A DNA stretch of 64,000 nt from contig OZ242351.1 of assembly GCA_965208675.1 (NCBI GenBank), forward strand, positions 2,976,001-3,040,000, read 5' to 3'. Below the pieces are notes generated by a model that did not search any database, was not told the DNA's origin, and worked only from the letters and a program-made list of their open reading frames with translations. This document shows, piece by piece, positions 8,465-63,445 of this stretch. Each line of letters begins with the position of its first letter. The first letter of the stretch is position 1. The translations under genes were made by a program, and so were the position numbers. The stretch is from Candidatus Poribacteria bacterium. GTDB lineage: Bacteria > Poribacteria > WGA-4E > PCPOR2b.

Positions 8465-8555
8465 ATGATGCGCCCGTTTGACACAAACTGTGGATTCAGG
8501 TAAAATAACGATAACCATTGCAAGCAAATTTCAAGTCACGGCAGGTAAAGAGGAT

Positions 8556-11297
8556 ATGAACCCCGAGCAAAAAGCGAGACAGAACATTGACCGAATGCTC
8601 ACGGCCGCGGGATGGGCAATTCAAGATCGGGAGGAGATGAATCTTGGTGAATCGCGGGGTGTTGCAATACGCGAATTCCCCATGGTTTCCGGGACCGCAG
8701 ACTACCTGCTAATTATCGACAGAAAAGCTGCCGGAGCCATTGAAGCCAAACCGGAGGGCACCACTCTCAGCGGTGTCTCTGAACAAACCGAGAAATATCT
8801 CACTGGAATTCCAACGGAACTTCCATATCATCAAAACCCTTTGCCGTTCGGTTATGAGAGCACCGGCGTTGAAACGTTCTTCCGCAACCTACGTGATCCG
8901 GATTCCCGTTCCCGCCGCGTTTTTGCCTTTCACAAACCGGAAACTTTGGCGCAGTGGGTCACCCATCGGGATACGCTGCGAGATCTTCTGAAAGATCTGC
9001 CGCCGCTAGACCAGCATGGCTTACGAAACTGCCAGATTGATGCAATTGTGAATCTGGAGAAATCGTTTGCGGAAAACCGTCCCCGCGCACTCATCCAGAT
9101 GGCGACCGGAAGCGGGAAAACCTACACCGCCGTTAGTTTCGCCTATCGGCTCATCAAATTCGCAGAAGCTAATAGAATACTGTTTCTAGTTGATCGCAGC
9201 AATCTCGGAAGGCAGACGCTCAAGGAATTTCAGCAATATACCACGCCGGACGACGGCAGAAAATTCGCCGAACTTTACAACGTGCAAAATCTCACTGCCA
9301 ACCATATTGATGAGGTGAGCAAAGTCTGCATCACTACAATCCAACGGTTATATTCAATGCTGAACGGGGCATCGGACTTAGATGAGCAAATCGAACGCCG
9401 CTCGATGTTCGACATGATATTGGCGAATCAACCCGCTGCGGACGTGGAATACAATCCCGATATTCCCATCTCGACCTTTGATTTCATCATCACAGACGAG
9501 TGCCATCGCTCAATCTACAACCGATGGAGGCCCGTGCTGGAATACTTCGACGCCTTTATCGTTGGTCTCACCGCCACTCCATCAAAGCAGACACTCGGAT
9601 TCTTCAATCAAAATTTGGTTACGGAATACAGCCACGAGCGAGCGGTCGCGGATGGCGTCAACGTCGGGTATGATGTGTATCGTATCAAGACAGAGATTAC
9701 GGACCAAGGCGGCGGCGTCGAAGCAGGCTTTTACGTTGACAAACGCGACCGGCTCACCCGCGAAACCCGATGGGAACAGCTTGATGAGGATATGGAATAC
9801 AGCGCAACTCAGCTTGACCGCGCTGTCGTAGCGCTCGACCAAATCCGTACCGTGATTCAGACTTTTCGAGATAATCTTTTCACGGAGATTTTCCCCGGCA
9901 GAACCGATGTGCCCAAAACGCTTATCTTCGCTAAGGACGACTCGCATGCAGAGGATATAGTGCACACCGTCCGCGAACAGTTCGGGTTGGGCAATGATTT
10001 CTGCAAAAAGATTACATACCACACAACGGGTGAGAAACCGGAAGACCTGCTCGCCAGTTTCCGAAATTCATACAATCCGCGCATCGCGGTTACGGTGGAC
10101 ATGGTCGCCACCGGCACGGACATCAAACCGCTAGAGTGCATCACCTTCATGCGAAATATCAGATCGGCAGTTTACTTTGAGCAGATGAAAGGCAGAGGGA
10201 CGCGTACGATTTCACCGACGGACTTGCAGGCGGTCACGCCCGACACCAATCACAAAACTCATTTCGTAATTGTTGACGCGATTGGCGTTTGCGAGAATGA
10301 CAAAACCGAGTCCCGACCGCTTGAGCGAAAACGCAGTGTGCCGTTCGACAAGCTGCTCGAATCGGTGGCGCTCGGAATCAGAGATTCCGATACCTTGACG
10401 ACATTGGCGGGTAGGCTCGCACGCCTTGACCGTCAAATTGGTGATAATGCGCAAAGACAGATTACCGAAGCGTCAGGAGGTACCACCTTGGATGGGATGA
10501 TAAACAGGCTGCTTAAGGCTGTAGACCCGGACCAAGATGAAAATCCCTTGATGTCGACAGAATCCGAAACCCCAACACCTGAGTTACTGCGCGAATGGAG
10601 GGAAAAACGCATCACCGATGCGTGCAAACCCTTTGACAATCCTGAATTACGTAACACGCTTATTGACATCAAAAGGCGGCGCGAGCAGACTATCGACAAC
10701 GTGAGTGAAGATAGCCTCATCGAATCAGGATATGACCGTGAGGCAAAGGAGAATGCCGAGCGGATAGTGACGGACTTCAAACAGTTTATCGAAGACAATA
10801 AGGACGAGTTGACAGCGCTCCAAATCATCTACAGTAAGCCCTACGGACAGCGGTACCTGACATATCGGCAGGTTAAGCAACTTGCAGATGCCGTCAAAAA
10901 CCCGCCCCATAATCTCACAACCGTGAGGTTATGGCAGGCGTATGAGCAGTTGGACCGTTCGACAGTCAAAGGAGCGAGACCGGACAAGCTATTGACCGAC
11001 ATTATATCCTTGGTGCGTTTTGCGATTGGGGAGGCGGAAACGCTCGAACCTTACAAAGATAGTGTCGATCGGAGATTTCAGGAATGGCTTAACAAGCAGG
11101 AAAGACTGTATTCAGAGGAACAGATGGCGTGGTTGAAGATGATAAAAGACCATATCGCTACGTCGCTAGACATTCAACTGGAAGACTTCGAGGAAATACC
11201 GTTTAAAGTAAAGGGCGGGGCAATTAAGGCGCATCAATTGTTTGGCGATACGTTGGGAACAATCCTTGCGGTGATGAATGAGCAGTTGGCGGCGTAA
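8556..11297 (+). CDS. hsdR: Type I restriction enzyme R subunit (EcoEI-like)
   Basis: ADYLL...AIEAK nuclease motif, MATGSGKT, DECHRS, GLTATP, QMKGRGTR, EcoEI-R C-terminal region; start at MNPEQKAR after AGAGGA. Confidence 0.92.
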   Translation: MNPEQKARQNIDRMLTAAGWAIQDREEMNLGESRGVAIREFPMVSGTADYLLIIDRKAAGAIEAKPEGTTLSGVSEQTEKYLTGIPTELPYHQNPLPFGYESTGVETFFRNLRDPDSRSRRVFAFHKPETLAQWVTHRDTLRDLLKDLPPLDQHGLRNCQIDAIVNLEKSFAENRPRALIQMATGSGKTYTAVSFAYRLIKFAEANRILFLVDRSNLGRQTLKEFQQYTTPDDGRKFAELYNVQNLTANHIDEVSKVCITTIQRLYSMLNGASDLDEQIERRSMFDMILANQPAADVEYNPDIPISTFDFIITDECHRSIYNRWRPVLEYFDAFIVGLTATPSKQTLGFFNQNLVTEYSHERAVADGVNVGYDVYRIKTEITDQGGGVEAGFYVDKRDRLTRETRWEQLDEDMEYSATQLDRAVVALDQIRTVIQTFRDNLFTEIFPGRTDVPKTLIFAKDDSHAEDIVHTVREQFGLGNDFCKKITYHTTGEKPEDLLASFRNSYNPRIAVTVDMVATGTDIKPLECITFMRNIRSAVYFEQMKGRGTRTISPTDLQAVTPDTNHKTHFVIVDAIGVCENDKTESRPLERKRSVPFDKLLESVALGIRDSDTLTTLAGRLARLDRQIGDNAQRQITEASGGTTLDGMINRLLKAVDPDQDENPLMSTESETPTPELLREWREKRITDACKPFDNPELRNTLIDIKRRREQTIDNVSEDSLIESGYDREAKENAERIVTDFKQFIEDNKDELTALQIIYSKPYGQRYLTYRQVKQLADAVKNPPHNLTTVRLWQAYEQLDRSTVKGARPDKLLTDIISLVRFAIGEAETLEPYKDSVDRRFQEWLNKQERLYSEEQMAWLKMIKDHIATSLDIQLEDFEEIPFKVKGGAIKAHQLFGDTLGTILAVMNEQLAA

Positions 11298-11509: not shown

Positions 11510-11800
11510 TCAGATTTGTGAGCCGTGAAGCAACGGAGACACAGTTGATTCGATTGGAGGCACCGGTGCTCCAGAGTCTGGGAACAGCCATGGTTGCTCT
11601 GCCTCATCCGTGATGTCTTCAACGGATGGTTCGTCGAACGGCGTCGCTGGGCTCGTCCAGAACTCCATCCTTTGTACGCACCGATTAACGCTGATGCGAT
11701 CGTAAATTCGGACGCGGCGTTCATGGGCGAGTGTTTCTTGAGCGAACACTTCGCGCATCAATCGTATGAGTCTGTCAGTAGAAATGTCGGCTTGCATCAT
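11510..11800 (-). CDS. Small hypothetical protein coupled to the dnaN paralog
   Basis: Start overlaps the upstream stop codon (ATGA); 96 aa. Confidence 0.55.
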   Translation of the reverse strand: MMQADISTDRLIRLMREVFAQETLAHERRVRIYDRISVNRCVQRMEFWTSPATPFDEPSVEDITDEAEQPWLFPDSGAPVPPIESTVSPLLHGSQI

Positions 11801-12918
11801 TTCATGGGCATTACAACGTATTGAAAGTTTTGCGCCAATTCAAGGCGCATTGAATCAGTCGGTTCCGGACGCATCCAGAATATAACTTCGGCGGCATCGG
11901 TGTGCATTAACCCGTCTTCAATGAAACTGGCATCGAATCCTGCCGCAGTACCTTGCCCCTCATACTGAATCGGCACACAAGCTTTCGAATTTCCCCAGCG
12001 CGTACTATTTTCAACAGTCAACTGTCCATCACGAATGCAAAACTCCGTACGGTTGTGGGGGTGGTCGTCACCTATGCGGATGGCTCTGAGTGCCCACAGC
12101 AACTCTTGACGACTCAACCTGATTTCCAAGCGGGCGCTGTTCGCTTTTTCAAGAACCCACTTATAATCCGCGAAATCCTCTTTCGGCAAGAGACACTTTA
12201 ATGAAACCCCCTTAGCCTCAAAACCCACGGCGCTCTCAGTGAAGCGGAGGCGGCAGACGTTCGGATTTAAGGATTCTATCAAATCAATCATCTTCATGCA
12301 AGCGGCATAAGGCATTGCCCGCATCGGAATAGAGGTTCCCGCTTGGGCTGGTTTATTCATTGATGGAAAGCTAATCACTGCCATCCGTCTGCCATCGGTC
12401 GTCACAATTCGATCTTCGCCGTCATGTCGATGAAAGAGCGCTCCCGTAACAGAGGGACGCCGTTTTGCCTCGTCCGAGTCCGATGGCTGTACCGACGCGA
12501 ACAGAACGGATTTCAGAGCCGCGCCAAACTGCGGTGCTTGCACTTCATGGTCGGGCGCGTCGGTAAGCGCTTCAAGTTCGGGATTCTGCCACTTCTCCGC
12601 ATGCGTACGCACGGCATGCCGATGTTGATTGCCATCAACTTCCAAACACCCATGCCATTTGTGGTGACTGAAACGCAGTGTTTCACCAACCGCGTGGTTG
12701 CAGATTCGCGACAGCGCGTCCGGGGGAACGGTTGCCTTTCCGGTGGCTTCGACCTCCGCTGGAATCGCATAATCTACACGGAAATTCCCGTCGTCGGTGT
12801 AGCATCTAAACTGTAGTTGCGCAGTTTGAATCGTAATCGACAAGTGTGTCCCCGGTTCGTCGAGTTTCAATAGGGTTAAGGCGCGCGTCAGCGCAGCCAC
12901 ATCACAAGTGAATTTCAT
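11797..12918 (-). CDS. dnaN: DNA polymerase III beta-subunit (sliding clamp) paralog, divergent
   Basis: 373 aa from MKFTCD after RBS GGGGAGG; VTTDGRRMA, FADYKWVL, GFDASFIED, FQYVVMPMK are beta-clamp signature motifs. Confidence 0.85.
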   Translation of the reverse strand: MKFTCDVAALTRALTLLKLDEPGTHLSITIQTAQLQFRCYTDDGNFRVDYAIPAEVEATGKATVPPDALSRICNHAVGETLRFSHHKWHGCLEVDGNQHRHAVRTHAEKWQNPELEALTDAPDHEVQAPQFGAALKSVLFASVQPSDSDEAKRRPSVTGALFHRHDGEDRIVTTDGRRMAVISFPSMNKPAQAGTSIPMRAMPYAACMKMIDLIESLNPNVCRLRFTESAVGFEAKGVSLKCLLPKEDFADYKWVLEKANSARLEIRLSRQELLWALRAIRIGDDHPHNRTEFCIRDGQLTVENSTRWGNSKACVPIQYEGQGTAAGFDASFIEDGLMHTDAAEVIFWMRPEPTDSMRLELAQNFQYVVMPMK

Positions 12919-13003: not shown

Positions 13004-13561
13004 TTAGAACAGGTCTTCGATTGATATTTCTCTCTGTTTGAGCAGCCGCAACACCTCATCGCGCAAGGCGTTGCGTGCGCGTTGCCGAAGTGATTTAACA
13101 GCGATTTCGCTCCGTTGAACAATCTTTGCAATCTCTCGGTTCGGCATATTTTCCAATTCGCCCAACACCAGCACCGTGCGGTCGATAGGTCGTAGTTGAA
13201 GTAAGGCGGCTTGCAAATACTCCCTGCTTTCAGCGTTAATCAACCGTTTGAGCGACGATTCCGTCGAATCCAGCGAGAAAGACAACGACTGAGTCAATTC
13301 ATGCGTAATTGGATAATCGAATGAAATCGCCGGGCGTTGTTGGCGCTGGCGTAAAAGGTCGATACACCCATTGTACGCGATGCGGAACAGCCACGAACGC
13401 ACCGCCGCCGGGTCAAGTAACTCAGTCCAGCCCTGATACGCTCGGAGAAATGTCTCGGCGGTCATGTCCTCGGCATCTGTTGGGTTCCCCAGTAGCCGAA
13501 GAACAAACCGGTAGATAGCGTCAACATTCGATTCATATACCTCGATGAATGTCTCATCCAC
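13004..13561 (-). CDS. ECF-family RNA polymerase sigma factor
   Basis: DAEDMTAETFLRAY, SWLFRIAYNGCIDLLR (region 2); EIAKIV...VKSLRQRARNAL (region 4). Confidence 0.92.
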   Translation of the reverse strand: MDETFIEVYESNVDAIYRFVLRLLGNPTDAEDMTAETFLRAYQGWTELLDPAAVRSWLFRIAYNGCIDLLRQRQQRPAISFDYPITHELTQSLSFSLDSTESSLKRLINAESREYLQAALLQLRPIDRTVLVLGELENMPNREIAKIVQRSEIAVKSLRQRARNALRDEVLRLLKQREISIEDLF

Positions 13562-58893: not shown

Positions 58894-59298
58894 TTACTCT
58901 TCACCTAAAGCAGGATCTAGGTGTATTATTCCTCTTTTATCTATCATTGTAATGCCAGCCAGCAGGTCGTCATCAATAGCCATAGCAATTGATGAAGTGC
59001 CGCCATTGCCAGAGACTGCGACACGCCCTCCATACTTATTCACGCCAATTATTACGCCTCTATCACTGAATAGTTTAAAAGTATCCGTGAGAGTGTTGAT
59101 GCTTTCCATATTAGGAACAAGAATTATCCGCGTTGTGCCGTCCGTATCGACGACTCGCAAACTGGTACACTCAATATCTCCTAACTTTGCGCGTTCAGCG
59201 AAGAGGCTAGGCATCAAGACACTAGAGGCTATCATACCTATCAGCATCAATATCCCGCCGATTGTAATATAGGCTAACTTCTGTTTGTAAGTTTTCAA
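58894..59298 (-). CDS. Exported beta-rich protein, paralog of 60194-60604
   Basis: MKTYKQKLAYITIGGILMLIGM...GDIECTSL shared with the paralog. Confidence 0.75.
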   Translation of the reverse strand: MKTYKQKLAYITIGGILMLIGMIASSVLMPSLFAERAKLGDIECTSLRVVDTDGTTRIILVPNMESINTLTDTFKLFSDRGVIIGVNKYGGRVAVSGNGGTSSIAMAIDDDLLAGITMIDKRGIIHLDPALGEE

Positions 59299-60193: not shown

Positions 60194-60604
60194 TTACTGG
60201 CTATAGCCGTTTTTGTCGTAGATGGACACGGCGCCGTTGCCATGTTCGTTGATGCCCATGATGGCGTAGCCTTTCGATCTGCCATGCGTACTTACATAGC
60301 CGCCATGTTCATCAGTACCGATTCTCACTTGTTTATTATCTACAGCGTCACCCTCGCGGAGGAAGACATCACCGGCACCGATTATCGTAGCTCTTGTTGG
60401 AGCGTCTTTCCACATAGCAATGGATTGTTTACTAATAAGTATAAACGCATCTTCGAGTCCACTGCCAATCTTCAAGCTCGTGCATTCAATATCTCCGAAT
60501 TTATCCTGTTGTGCGGTTATAGGTGATAGCAGCATCCCAATAATGGTAAAAATACTGCCTAACGCCATTAGCCCTGCCTTTTGCTTCCAAGTGGTTTTGA
60601 TCAT
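60194..60604 (-). CDS. Exported beta-rich protein, paralog of 58894-59298
   Basis: MIKTTWKQKAGLMALGSIFTIIGM...DKFGDIECTSL; repeated 'EHGG/EHGNG' motifs. Confidence 0.75.
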   Translation of the reverse strand: MIKTTWKQKAGLMALGSIFTIIGMLLSPITAQQDKFGDIECTSLKIGSGLEDAFILISKQSIAMWKDAPTRATIIGAGDVFLREGDAVDNKQVRIGTDEHGGYVSTHGRSKGYAIMGINEHGNGAVSIYDKNGYSQ

Positions 60605-60804
60605 TTTCGAACCCCTTTTCTGAATTGGTTGTTCCACAAATTAAGAAACTCACGGAAGTCAGTCAATGCTTCGCATAATTGCTCAATTTTCTTATCTGTA
60701 GCATAATGAGTGCCAAAATTCCGAGCGTGGCGTAATGCTTCAGTAAGGTCGTCGATTTCGGAAAGTAGATACAAACGGTTGTCATCGCTGGATGGTGGTC
60801 GCAT
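60601..60804 (-). CDS. Small helical hypothetical protein
   Basis: AAAGGAGGTTACATATG start; stop overlaps the next ATG. Confidence 0.65.
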   Translation of the reverse strand: MRPPSSDDNRLYLLSEIDDLTEALRHARNFGTHYATDKKIEQLCEALTDFREFLNLWNNQFRKGVRK

Positions 60805-60872
60805 ATGTAACCTCCTTTTCTGTGGAAAATGTCCGATAATGTAGATTAGCGGACAGCCTTTCAGTCCGCTTT

Positions 60873-62579
60873 TCATCTCTTATAAGCCGACCGGTCAGTA
60901 TTCCCGCCGTATTTCATCGCATACACGAACATATTCACCATGAACCGATGCACGTCCGCGGAACGGCGCATCCGCAGCATTGTCCGGCTGGGGATTTCCG
61001 CCGTCTCCATCGCACAGAGATAATCCTTCCGATTGTACACCACTGCGAGGCGGCGCCCGATTGTAATCCCCTTCTGAAACTTAAACTTTGTCACCTTCGG
61101 GTTGTTTTCAGACCCCCAATACACATCAGACCCGTTCGGCGGAATAGACAGCTTGTAATAGATAGAATAAATCTCGTGGCTGTGGGGAACAGACTGGAGC
61201 GGGTATTCCGGCATAATTTTCTTCAATTCATCAGCGACACGCGCAGCGAACAAGCCCTTGAACCCGCAATCATCGAAAAATAGCAGCCCGCCGCGTTCCA
61301 CAAGATACTTTCTCATCGCCGACCGTTCTGCCGGTGTAAAGCCCGACAGCCACGGCTCGCCGCGCATCAGGTTACGGGTTGTGGTCAACTCCTTATCGTG
61401 ACCTGTCATGACAATTATCGGCGCATCGAGGATTCGCGGATCTGTCATCCGCATCGCGCCGCCCTCCAGTTTCATATCCGCACGCAGCCGAGTGTTGTCC
61501 GATAACCACCGCATGAAACTCGGCAGAGCTGACGGGTCTTGCCACCAATCTGCAAGGGAATGTATTAACCGAGTAAAGCGGATGTGACCTTGTATATCCG
61601 CGCCCTCACCCTCTAAAATAGCACCTAACTTATCATCAGGGACAGTCGTGATTTTAGCCAACGGGTCGTCTCCCGCGCCGCCGGCATCAGCAGCCCCGAC
61701 CGACCCCACCAGCGAGTCAATTCCGCTCGAATGAATCCCGCCGCGGCCGGGCCCGTTGATGTCGTCCGTACCCCGCCCGTGTCCGGTTCTGAGACCCCGG
61801 CGCCTTCCAACCCCCGGCGCAATAACCTCCTCATTGCGTCTAGTGTCAAGCTGTGCCGCCGTCGTGACAGGCGCATCGACAATCGCGTCGGGCGTCAACG
61901 GCGACACGTCCATTGATACGCTTCCCGGCGCCGGCGCAATCGGCTTAGCAATTCTTTGAGCAGCCGAAACGCGAACCGACTGGGCAATCGGTTTCACGGC
62001 TGGGCGCACCGGCTCCGGGGGTTTAGGCTTAATCTTTTTAGGGCGCCTAGTCTTTGGCACCGGCTTTACCATCTCCACGGCAATCGCATCTTCGATAACC
62101 TCCGCATCGTCGGTTGCCAGTATAAAAATGACAAAAGCCAAGATAACGTGCGCCACCGCGGAGATTAACATCGAATTGCGGACTTTACTACTCTTTTCGG
62201 TGACAACCGCCGCCGCGGCCTTGGACGCCAATGATTCGGGTGTGTATCCGGACGCGCTCAGGTAGTAGGTCTGTCCGCCGCAATCAACCTGCATCTGTCC
62301 ACCCGGGAGGCTCCGGAACTGGGCGCTTTCGCCTGCTCGGATTATTTCGCTCACCCGTATAATCGGCAGACTTACCGACCCCGGTTGTGCAATCTCCGCG
62401 TCGATTGTTATTTTTCGGTCTGCGGCGAAAAGCTCAAGCCTGTCAACGCCAATGCTCCGCACACGAACATCGGAAACATTCGATAGCTGATTTTCTCGCG
62501 CCGCCTGTGATTGGAGCGACTTAATCGCCTTCAGAATATTTGCTGTTTCTATCGTGAATTGCATACGGCAAGTATTCAA
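60873..62579 (-). CDS. DUF4159-domain membrane protein with an N-terminal beta-clamp-like domain
   Basis: C-terminal PIIVMTGH...RKYLVERGGLLFFDDCG...HEIY (DUF4159 pattern); central TM helix and Pro-rich linker; N-terminal ~110 aa align by eye to DnaN domain I. Confidence 0.75.
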   Translation of the reverse strand: MNTCRMQFTIETANILKAIKSLQSQAARENQLSNVSDVRVRSIGVDRLELFAADRKITIDAEIAQPGSVSLPIIRVSEIIRAGESAQFRSLPGGQMQVDCGGQTYYLSASGYTPESLASKAAAAVVTEKSSKVRNSMLISAVAHVILAFVIFILATDDAEVIEDAIAVEMVKPVPKTRRPKKIKPKPPEPVRPAVKPIAQSVRVSAAQRIAKPIAPAPGSVSMDVSPLTPDAIVDAPVTTAAQLDTRRNEEVIAPGVGRRRGLRTGHGRGTDDINGPGRGGIHSSGIDSLVGSVGAADAGGAGDDPLAKITTVPDDKLGAILEGEGADIQGHIRFTRLIHSLADWWQDPSALPSFMRWLSDNTRLRADMKLEGGAMRMTDPRILDAPIIVMTGHDKELTTTRNLMRGEPWLSGFTPAERSAMRKYLVERGGLLFFDDCGFKGLFAARVADELKKIMPEYPLQSVPHSHEIYSIYYKLSIPPNGSDVYWGSENNPKVTKFKFQKGITIGRRLAVVYNRKDYLCAMETAEIPSRTMLRMRRSADVHRFMVNMFVYAMKYGGNTDRSAYKR

Positions 62580-63445
62580 TCCTCAATTTTGAACCGATAC
62601 GGAACAATTATGCGGATTGTGACCGGTTTGCCGTCTTTTTGCGCCGGCTTAAACCGCGACCGTTTCAACGCCTCGATTGCTGCTTCATCACAGCCCATTC
62701 CAATTCCCGCTCTTACCTTAATATCTCTGGCTTTGCCGTCAATTCCGATGGTCGCCTCTAACTTCACAACCCCTTCTTTTCCGGCATGACGGGCACGTTC
62801 CGGATACTTCGGCTTCGGCTTATGGATGGCTTTCGGCGGTACGGTGTTATCCGTAATGTCCACGACGGGTACGTTGACAGTGTCGTCTAGCCCAATATCT
62901 GCGTCCGGGATGTCTGTCTCCATCTCGTTAAAAATTGATGGTCGGTCAGGCCTGGTGGTGGGAATCTTCGGCAATTCAGGTTCAATGCTTGGGCGTTCCC
63001 CTTCGGCAATTGGCGGCCTTTCAATCTTGGGAATCTCCGGCGGTGCATCAGGTGAGTCAATAACAAGGTTATCTGAAGGAACAGCATATCCGCCTGAGCC
63101 GGACGGAATGTCCACCGGTTTTACGGGCTGGCTGGGTCGGGTTGTCGGAGTTAGCCGTACTTCGGGTTTAATTGTCTTAGCTTCACGCTCAGGTTCACGA
63201 GGTGGGGGTTTAACCTTCTTCGCCTCAAACATTTCAGTTACCACTGCATCATCATCGTGAATCGCTACATTTTGGGCGATGTGAAAAGCGACAAACAGCA
63301 TGATGACCAAATGGAAAGCAAGAGATACAATCCACCCAAGAGATTTAGACACGCGATTTTTCTTTCTCTGCCGCCGCTCTAAAATCGGCTCAACCGCAGG
63401 AATCCGGCGTTTACGTTCATGATTTAGCGAATTTGACTTGGACAT
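62576..63445 (-). CDS. tonB: TonB-family energy transducer
   Basis: SLAFH TM motif, Pro-rich linker, PKYPERARHAGKEGVV...FKPAQKDGKPV. Confidence 0.9.
   Translation of the reverse strand: MSKSNSLNHERKRRIPAVEPILERRQRKKNRVSKSLGWIVSLAFHLVIMLFVAFHIAQNVAIHDDDAVVTEMFEAKKVKPPPREPEREAKTIKPEVRLTPTTRPSQPVKPVDIPSGSGGYAVPSDNLVIDSPDAPPEIPKIERPPIAEGERPSIEPELPKIPTTRPDRPSIFNEMETDIPDADIGLDDTVNVPVVDITDNTVPPKAIHKPKPKYPERARHAGKEGVVKLEATIGIDGKARDIKVRAGIGMGCDEAAIEALKRSRFKPAQKDGKPVTIRIIVPYRFKIED

Follow-up and report, generated by a model that had tools for sequence, protein, structure and literature searches.

A single sliding-clamp domain on a TonB-like membrane protein of Candidatus Poribacteria

Sliding-clamp domains are known as parts of rings that encircle DNA. 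Here we describe a protein in which one such domain, homologous to domain I of the bacterial clamp DnaN but diverged from it, precedes a transmembrane (TM) anchor of TonB type, a disordered spacer and a DUF4159 domain. Its gene lies on the minus strand at 60873..62579 of a stretch of 64,000 nucleotides (the window; positions 2,976,001 to 3,040,000 of contig OZ242351.1, assembly GCA_965208675.1) from a Candidatus Poribacteria bacterium. The architecture is real, conserved and undescribed; in print we have found no other case of a single clamp domain retained by selection at the cytoplasmic end of a TonB-like protein.

The open reading frame (ORF) is uninterrupted and comes to 568 residues when counted from a TTG codon. 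A public protein collection holds a 563-residue version (P0001) that starts at the ATG at 62564, and the clamp-bearing homologues all align starting at the Met of this codon. On these alignments the true start is ATG 62564, the protein has 563 residues, and residues are numbered below from this Met. The parts of the protein are as follows, with the evidence for each in brackets:

62235..62564, minus strand: predicted cytoplasmic clamp-fold domain, diverged homologue of DnaN domain I, residues 1-110, in two beta-alpha-beta-beta-beta halves (profile search against the PDB, PF00712, AlphaFold2 model, Foldseek, VIA-align, ratio of nonsynonymous to synonymous substitution rates or dN/dS)
62193..62234, minus strand: flexible basic tether from the clamp domain to the membrane, residues 111-124 (predicted local distance difference test or pLDDT, translation, alignment)
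62109..62192, minus strand: single TM helix of TonB type, residues 125-152, with S135-x-x-x-H139 (predicted helix, motif, BLASTP, hhalign)
61641..62108, minus strand: predicted disordered periplasmic spacer, residues 153-308 (pLDDT, composition, dN/dS)
60876..61640, minus strand: DUF4159 head with a fold like that of class I glutamine amidotransferases, residues 309-563, the most conserved part, with an invariant Cys433 in D-D-C-G-F (PF13709, VIA-align, Foldseek, alignment)

Clamp-fold domain, anchor and DUF4159 head

An initial annotation, made from the DNA letters alone, had read a clamp domain I at the N-terminus, and comparison with both profiles and structures bears this reading out. The homology to PF00712 is established at the level of the family and not by the window protein alone, which scores below the cut-off of 24.4 bits (15.7 bits for the whole protein, 19.6 bits for the N-terminal part by itself). 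Among 13 family N-termini, 12 match PF00712 at E<=1, the best at 7.7e-8. When a profile built from the same 13 is searched against the PDB, beta sliding clamps account for 49 of the 52 distinct chains matched at E<=10 (best E 8.3e-7), and profile positions 1-115 map onto residues 1-115 of E. coli beta.

The AlphaFold2 model of the clamp part has a mean pLDDT of 82.4, with ten-residue blocks at 86-95 across residues 1-100 and at 71 across residues 101-110. Values fall below 50 at residues 111-128, or at 110-124 in a second model. The predicted topology is a doubled beta-alpha-beta-beta-beta, and all rows among the Foldseek matches listed are beta clamps (best E 3.5e-5). VIA-align, which is independent of Foldseek, places bacterial clamps at Z 11.2-15.3 (best 6d46_A, root-mean-square deviation 2.3 over 102 residues) and PCNA, 9-1-1 and viral processivity factors at about Z 7-10.8. 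Since two VIA-align rows place the model on domain III and not on domain I, the fold alone does not identify the clamp domain; the sequence profile identifies it as domain I. By profile and predicted fold, residues 1-110 are a diverged homologue of this domain. Fold-determining residues common to the fused domain and DnaN are L10/L11, Q18, L27, G62, P67 and C95/G96, and members that are 23-35% identical across the N-terminal part still retain such determinants. A sliding clamp has three clamp domains per chain and closes into a ring as a head-to-tail dimer; here there is a single clamp domain, and the rest of the protein is TM helix, spacer and DUF4159. With one domain the protein can form neither a ring nor the client-binding pocket, for which domains II and III are needed.

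We compared 29 distinct fused domains with 10 DnaN sequences of the phylum, using the numbering of the E. coli gene. R24, which we take to be a DNA contact of E. coli beta, is retained in 4 of the 29 fused domains, R96 in one and L82 in none (a gap in 11 and a small residue in 18), whereas each of the three is present in all 10 phylum DnaN. The T-D-L motif varies among the fused domains, some of which have a five-residue deletion. Other positions of the clamp interface are better kept: on the edge strand, position 106 (F106 in E. coli) is aromatic in 27 of 29 and position 108 (L108) hydrophobic in 28 of 29, while position 74 is basic in 18 and R80 is retained in 23. The interface residues of E. 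coli beta were taken from PMC12269063, an excerpt of which states that changing L82 to Asp destabilises the dimer. On the host side, the domain-III face of the interface is retained in all 8 DnaN sequences compared (R269, hydrophobic residues at 272/273, acidic residues at 298, 301 and 304). Residues conserved specifically in the fused family (E44, S46, K51, D55, E57, Q90 and Q98) lie along two edges of the sheet, strands 3-4 and 7-8, which adjacent domains cover in a genuine clamp.

In a tree of domain I (56 rows), a branch with 96% support separates all canonical DnaN, together with a single long-branched fused member, from the remaining fused domains. An origin within the phylum's own DnaN was considered and rejected: the fused domains do not nest inside phylum DnaN on this tree, and the low E-values to Poribacterial DnaN that had pointed to it were computed per genome, the bit scores being 62-78 against up to 72 for other DnaN.

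The TonB-like TM helix named in the initial annotation can be read directly from the translation, as S-A-V-A-H at 62148-62162 (S135 and H139) within a helix predicted at residues 125-152. When 50 relatives are aligned, some with the clamp part and some lacking it, every one has the His; four positions earlier, 38 have Ser, 9 have Ala and 3 have Thr. We take the corresponding motif of E. coli TonB to be S16/H20. The likeness extends beyond the helix: in BLASTP, residues 124-211 match the stretch 28-110 of the neighbouring TonB at 35% identity over 91 columns (E 4e-7), and hhalign of the family profile against the same TonB gives 91.6% probability over 76 columns (E 8.3e-7). By these comparisons the anchor is of TonB type, a TonB-like membrane-proximal stretch included. 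Lys/Arg residues stand directly before the helix and acidic residues after it, and there is no signal-peptide-like start; from this pattern the clamp part would be cytoplasmic and the rest periplasmic, and the whole should cross the inner membrane once, with the N-terminus inside. The annotated Pro-rich linker is likewise present, as a spacer that is rich in Pro/Lys at its start and in Gly/Ala/Asp further on, with pLDDT below 50 and predicted disorder across residues 154-302. PF03544 (TonB_C, the domain that binds TonB boxes) has no match in the fusion protein at E<=1, and DUF4159 occupies its place.

The assignment of the C-terminal head to DUF4159 is firm. PF13709 scores 96.1 bits against a cut-off of 25.9 and is covered over its full length (1-202), and the head model superposes on 4i66_A with Z 16.9 in VIA-align (root-mean-square deviation 2.7 over 180 residues, 25% identity; Foldseek E 3.3e-9). 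A search of the head against a protein atlas returns clusters labelled 'DUF4159' only. True class I amidotransferases, ThuA-like and IFT52-like domains reach about Z 7 (6.9-7.2 for the amidotransferases), a level at which, according to the tool, perhaps only the arrangement is common. As excerpted, PMC4702930 reports that Pfam puts DUF4159 in the Glutaminase_I clan on structural grounds.

About 75 columns are invariant in the alignment of 50 heads. One of them, in the anchor-bearing subfamily, is Cys433 (codon 61266-61268) within D-D-C-G-F at 61260-61274, between a strand at 427-432 and a helix at 438-450. Class I amidotransferases have a catalytic Cys-His-Glu triad on the fold, and their nucleophile also stands between a strand and a helix. 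Three other DUF4159 paralogues of the genome, the canonical one included, lack the Cys and have Tyr, Trp or Met at this place. Going by these alignments, the D-D-C-G motif could be the mark of a subfamily that is catalytic within a fold that otherwise is not.

DUF4159 is matched 13 times in this genome, in 10 open frames. Three more of these frames (489-496 residues) carry the same S-x-x-x-H anchor with short N-terminal tails, one frame has Asn in place of the His, and a 225-residue paralogue has a plain signal-peptide-like start. Clampless relatives of 416-506 residues make up most of the 120 homologues listed. The working core is the TonB-like anchor with spacer and DUF4159, a unit that is found phylum-wide, and in this genome as several paralogues, with no clamp part.

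Distribution, selection and gain or loss of the clamp part

The relatives are Candidatus Poribacteria by their source names. When the N-terminal profile was searched over 176 genomes of the phylum, 170 had matches, nearly all of them ordinary DnaN of ~370-400 residues. Fused frames, 518-607 residues long and free of stops, were found at 16 loci in 15 of the 176 genomes and in three families. In the family to which the window belongs, 7 of 29 genomes carry the fusion, this genome with its two copies included; in another family 1 of 11 does, and in the third all 7 of 7. The largest family has no intact copy in 112 genomes. Among 1.84 billion representatives, 5 proteins were matched at E<=1e-30; the fused type is a handful of clusters, after which come canonical DnaN, the best at 72 bits. 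No other architecture appears among the best 150 matches, in which one long protein is a repeat artefact.

Selection was estimated from dN/dS by the Nei-Gojobori method in seven pairs. The clamp part has values of 0.12-0.38 in all seven, the tether and helix 0.13-0.41 (one pair is saturated), the spacer 0.08-0.32 and the DUF4159 head 0.02-0.06. The clamp part is thus under purifying selection, 5-10 times looser than that on the head. The possibility of a chance fusion, which the initial annotation had left standing, can be set aside on this constraint and on the spread over three families.

On a tree of the DUF4159 head (53 rows), presence or absence of the clamp part needs 4 changes, of which well-supported branches force at least 2, and three clampless proteins fall within the fully supported clade of the window protein's closest relatives. 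Because the clamp part has changed state on this tree, with clampless proteins nested among clamp-bearing ones, the core unit is anchor, spacer and DUF4159. A single gain followed by losses in several branches is the probable history of the clamp part.

Two observations concern the largest family. Genome G113 has a 191-residue ORF with the clamp part only (L048 9392-9967, plus strand; PF00712 E 5e-8), followed by a 102-residue fragment of a DUF4159 tail (L048 10276-10584, plus strand), with a phage-type integrase and restriction/helicase genes beside them; this locus looks like a decayed copy, possibly acquired horizontally. Separately, many genomes of this otherwise fusion-free lineage have 2-5 frames of DnaN length each, often two or three in tandem (for example G098:C1:1251838-1254503 and G141:C98:12788-14419), a surplus that represents an expansion of sliding-clamp paralogues.

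tonB and other neighbouring genes

The gene upstream of the fusion in the window is the following:

62576..63445, minus strand: tonB paralogue of 289 residues, adjoining the fusion gene upstream in this copy of the locus only (TonB_C 78.7 bits, junction sequence)

The initial annotation had the fusion gene coupled to tonB. With the ATG start the two genes do not overlap: the tonB stop codon (62576-62578) is followed by 11 nucleotides and then by ATG 62564. No terminator-like site was found on the minus strand between the two genes, and a scan for promoters and terminators gave no signal exceeding the shuffled expectation. For expression, no RNA data with the sequence were listed. The coupling is not supported in the form in which it was annotated, since tonB is a neighbour at only 1 of 17 loci. 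The junction between the end of tonB and the start of the clamp part does exist: in three further sponge-metagenome runs, each from a different study, short contigs bridge it at ~93-95% identity, whereas a fourth run has a different sequence just upstream of the fusion start. BLASTP with the window TonB finds no counterpart at the other 16, and TonB_C is absent from 92 neighbouring ORFs at 12 loci and from the ORFs scanned at the genome's second locus. Of the genome's two TonB_C genes, the one in the window is itself a second and diverged copy, which shares 71% identity with its counterpart at a synonymous divergence (dS) of 0.47; between the two fusion copies of the genome, identity is about 80%. 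The pairing of tonB with the fusion is real in a narrow lineage and is not a property of the family.

The fusion has a DnaJ/TPR gene on one side and rpsL-rpsG-fusA on the other at the second locus of this genome and in the genus's three other species. In another genus (g12) it has a convergent SRAP (SOS-response-associated peptidase) gene on one side and a divergent VWA/PorV-like/TPR cluster on the other, and the SRAP gene abuts the 3' end of the fusion (L042 7491-8177, plus strand; L044 11031-11699, minus strand). In genome G018 a divergent Y-family polymerase gene (L043 10300-11421, plus strand) lies 414 bp from the fusion gene. Such DNA-damage neighbours, noticed post hoc, occur in 2 of about 8 independent contexts and amount to a hint. 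In genome G029 the upstream neighbour (L040 10629-12848, minus strand) encodes 739 residues with regions 2 and 4 of an extracytoplasmic function (ECF) sigma factor at the N-terminus and a long unassigned remainder.

Several candidate explanations of the locus were tried and rejected. For control by the SOS response, no LexA box of E. coli, Cheo or alpha type was found in the 300 nucleotides upstream of 15 fused genes, although the box of this phylum may differ; the sole match to a LexA pattern falls within the coding sequence of tonB. For a mobile island at the window copy, there is no tRNA in 40000-64000 and no integrase or transposase in 13 ORFs of the window and 2 further ORFs, nor in 9 ORFs upstream of tonB. 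For a defence system, PADLOC gave no match at E<=0.01 for the fusion, TonB, the divergent DnaN of the window (below) or the clamp-only ORF of G113.

Some other genes of the window may be recorded here. The gene at 11797-12918 (minus strand), called a paralogue in the initial annotation, turns out to be a divergent full-length DnaN paralogue of 373 residues and not a relative of the fusion; solved beta clamps match it with E 7e-10 over domains I-III. It is missed by PF00712 and by the N-terminal family profile. An ECF sigma gene (13004-13561) stands immediately upstream of it, and a type I restriction R subunit (8478-11297) is close by; the genuine dnaN is elsewhere in the genome. Immediately downstream of the fusion, a 91-residue ORF (60601-60876, minus strand) has an ATG that overlaps the fusion stop codon. 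It is without a counterpart at 16 other loci, its Pfam and PADLOC matches are at chance level only, and it was not counted into the system; in one other metagenome run (n=1) the sequence departs near 60840-60852, within this ORF. A small family of proteins of ~120-147 residues flanks the tonB-fusion pair (60194-60637 and 58894-59298, both on the minus strand, and L005 5645-6007, minus strand). Its members have an N-terminal hydrophobic helix and the common motif G-D-I-E-C-T-S-L, two copies are 63% identical, and none has a Pfam match.

Possible roles of the clamp part and known relatives

The closest known comparison for the anchor is TonB itself, with a single TM helix whose N-terminus is inside, Ser and His four residues apart, and then a Pro-rich spacer that extends into the periplasm. 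The fusion is similar to the TonB of its genome across the helix and ~50 residues beyond it, and a TonB paralogue adjoins it upstream. It differs in that TonB_C, which contacts outer-membrane receptors, is replaced by DUF4159. According to parts of PMC8262864, TonB proteins are generally without a cytoplasmic domain, whereas the fusion has a folded one of 110 residues; the same parts describe the linker of the TonB family as flexible, often Pro-rich and periplasmic, and SjdR of Anabaena as a TonB-like anchor that bears a non-TonB periplasmic part. GltJ/AgmX of Myxococcus xanthus provides a second comparison: a folded or functional part in the cytoplasm is followed by one TM helix and a flexible stretch in the periplasm. 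Its cytosolic motifs recruit and bind partners and its TonB-C is outside (PMC11135422, as excerpted). GltJ has a zinc finger and GYF inside and TonB-C outside, while the fusion has clamp domain I inside and DUF4159 outside.

DnaN domain I shares with the clamp part the same fold and sequence homology along the whole domain. The fusion differs from DnaN in having one domain and not three, in being tethered to the membrane, in the loss of R24, L82 and R96, and in standing outside canonical DnaN across the 96% branch. The head is most like Hoch_4089 of Haliangium ochraceum (4i66), which is a stand-alone chain of 200 residues; the DUF4159 subfamily described here adds a TonB-like anchor, a spacer of ~150 residues, the D-D-C-G motif and, in some lineages, the clamp domain. 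In the literature searched, which did not extend to subscription journals and supplements, DUF4159 was mentioned only for its clan, and DnaN-like or clamp-like domains were not found on a membrane protein among the matches listed. Poribacteria together with TonB, the sliding clamp or DnaN were not found among the best 10 of 404 matches.

What might such a protein do? The reading that we prefer, and to which we give about an even chance, is that it is a TonB-like envelope protein coupled to ExbB-ExbD, in which the clamp-fold domain has been exapted as a cytoplasmic docking module. The anchor would dock on the proton-driven motor ExbB-ExbD, as TonB does, and through it the motor would displace the DUF4159 head in the envelope or keep it in place. 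As an accessory module on the cytoplasmic side, exapted for docking and kept by selection, the clamp-fold domain would use the two free edges of its beta-sheet to connect the anchor on the motor with a partner in the cytoplasm, a role comparable to that of the GltJ domains on this side of the membrane; DnaN is one candidate for this partner.

A number of points weigh against this docking reading. No exbB or exbD gene adjoins the fusion at any of 17 loci; the genome's motor genes, one ExbB and two ExbD together, lie about 68 kb away. The likeness of the TM helices may be inflated by composition, and the TonB-N/TonB models of Pfam and NCBIfam have no match to the fusion protein at E<=1. Nor is the fusion a member of the GltJ family, as the NCBIfam model NF033761 gives 13.1 bits against a cut-off of 450, over helix and spacer only. 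Because neighbourhoods vary between genera, the adaptor role is one that we infer from fold, selection and analogy. The trees of domain I and of the DUF4159 head were made by a 'quick' method and have many open forks. Prediction of a complex between the genome's DnaN and residues 1-112 weighs neither way: the score was 0.00 in both runs, and the controls did not fold.

A first alternative, which we regard as unlikely, dispenses with the motor: the helix would merely tether a periplasmic DUF4159 enzyme or scaffold, and the clamp domain would serve folding, stability or self-association. The lack of exbB and exbD at the 17 loci fits such a passive role, as does the 225-residue paralogue in which DUF4159 follows a plain signal-peptide-like start. 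Clamp domains naturally pair edge to edge, and the invariant Cys433 is at a site that resembles that of the amidotransferase nucleophile. A mere anchor, however, would not be expected to keep a His in its TM helix in all 50 relatives, with a Ser four positions earlier, or to share profile similarity with TonB beyond the helix. The enzymatic variant, for its part, has to contend with the absence of the Cys from the canonical DUF4159 paralogue and two others and with the match of true amidotransferases at only about Z 7.

A second alternative makes the clamp part a decoy or tether for the clamp itself. The membrane-held domain I would pair by its beta-edge with a DnaN monomer, through domain III or domain I, and by capping or tethering subunits would feed the state of the envelope into replication. 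We consider this rather improbable, and slightly less probable still is the specific form in which clamp subunits would be held or localised at an envelope machine driven by the proton-motive force. The half of DnaN from which the domain derives forms the dimer interface (PMC12269063). Its edge positions 106 and 108 and, in most members, the basic position 74 and R80 have been kept, and the domain-III side of host DnaN is intact. DNA-damage genes are nearest neighbours in two separate lineages, the Y-family polymerase in G018 and SRAP in three genomes of one genus. There is also a precedent in IncA, which according to parts of bioRxiv 10.1101/2025.01.13.632716 stops replication by clamp disassembly. 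Against these points stand the loss of L82 from every fused domain and of R24 and R96 from most, together with the variable T-D-L motif and its five-residue deletion in some members. The domain was moreover dropped in several branches while the rest of the protein stayed, which would be odd for a replication checkpoint. The upstream regions of the 15 fused genes have none of the three known types of LexA box, and the hint from the neighbourhoods comes from 2 of about 8 contexts.

Signalling across the membrane is a third alternative, and a very doubtful one: a periplasmic event at DUF4159 would lead to intramembrane proteolysis and so free the clamp-fold domain, as happens with membrane-tethered sigma factors. 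The layout is the same (a DNA-related cytoplasmic domain, one helix and an outer domain), and the sigma fusion of 739 residues is the upstream neighbour in G029. However, no linked protease gene and no known cleavage motif were found, the anchor resembles TonB and not the helices of anti-sigma factors, and what would be freed is a 110-residue domain without known activity. That the clamp part is a functionless relic of a chance fusion, as the decayed copy in G113 and its faster evolution relative to the head might suggest, is hardly credible given intact frames in 15 genomes, dN/dS below 0.4 in all seven pairs, a confident fold prediction and fold determinants that persist in members of low mutual identity.

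The consequences depend on the partner. If the clamp part docks DnaN, the fusion would be a new kind of link between envelope and replication, and if the decoy were true there would be a direct line from the energy state of the envelope to DNA replication or damage tolerance. If another partner is docked, the clamp fold would be exaptable as a general beta-edge adaptor. The host organisms are uncultured and sponge-associated, and across their phylum the combination of TonB-type anchor, spacer and DUF4159 suggests the idea that DUF4159 may be an alternative head for motors of the ExbBD type.

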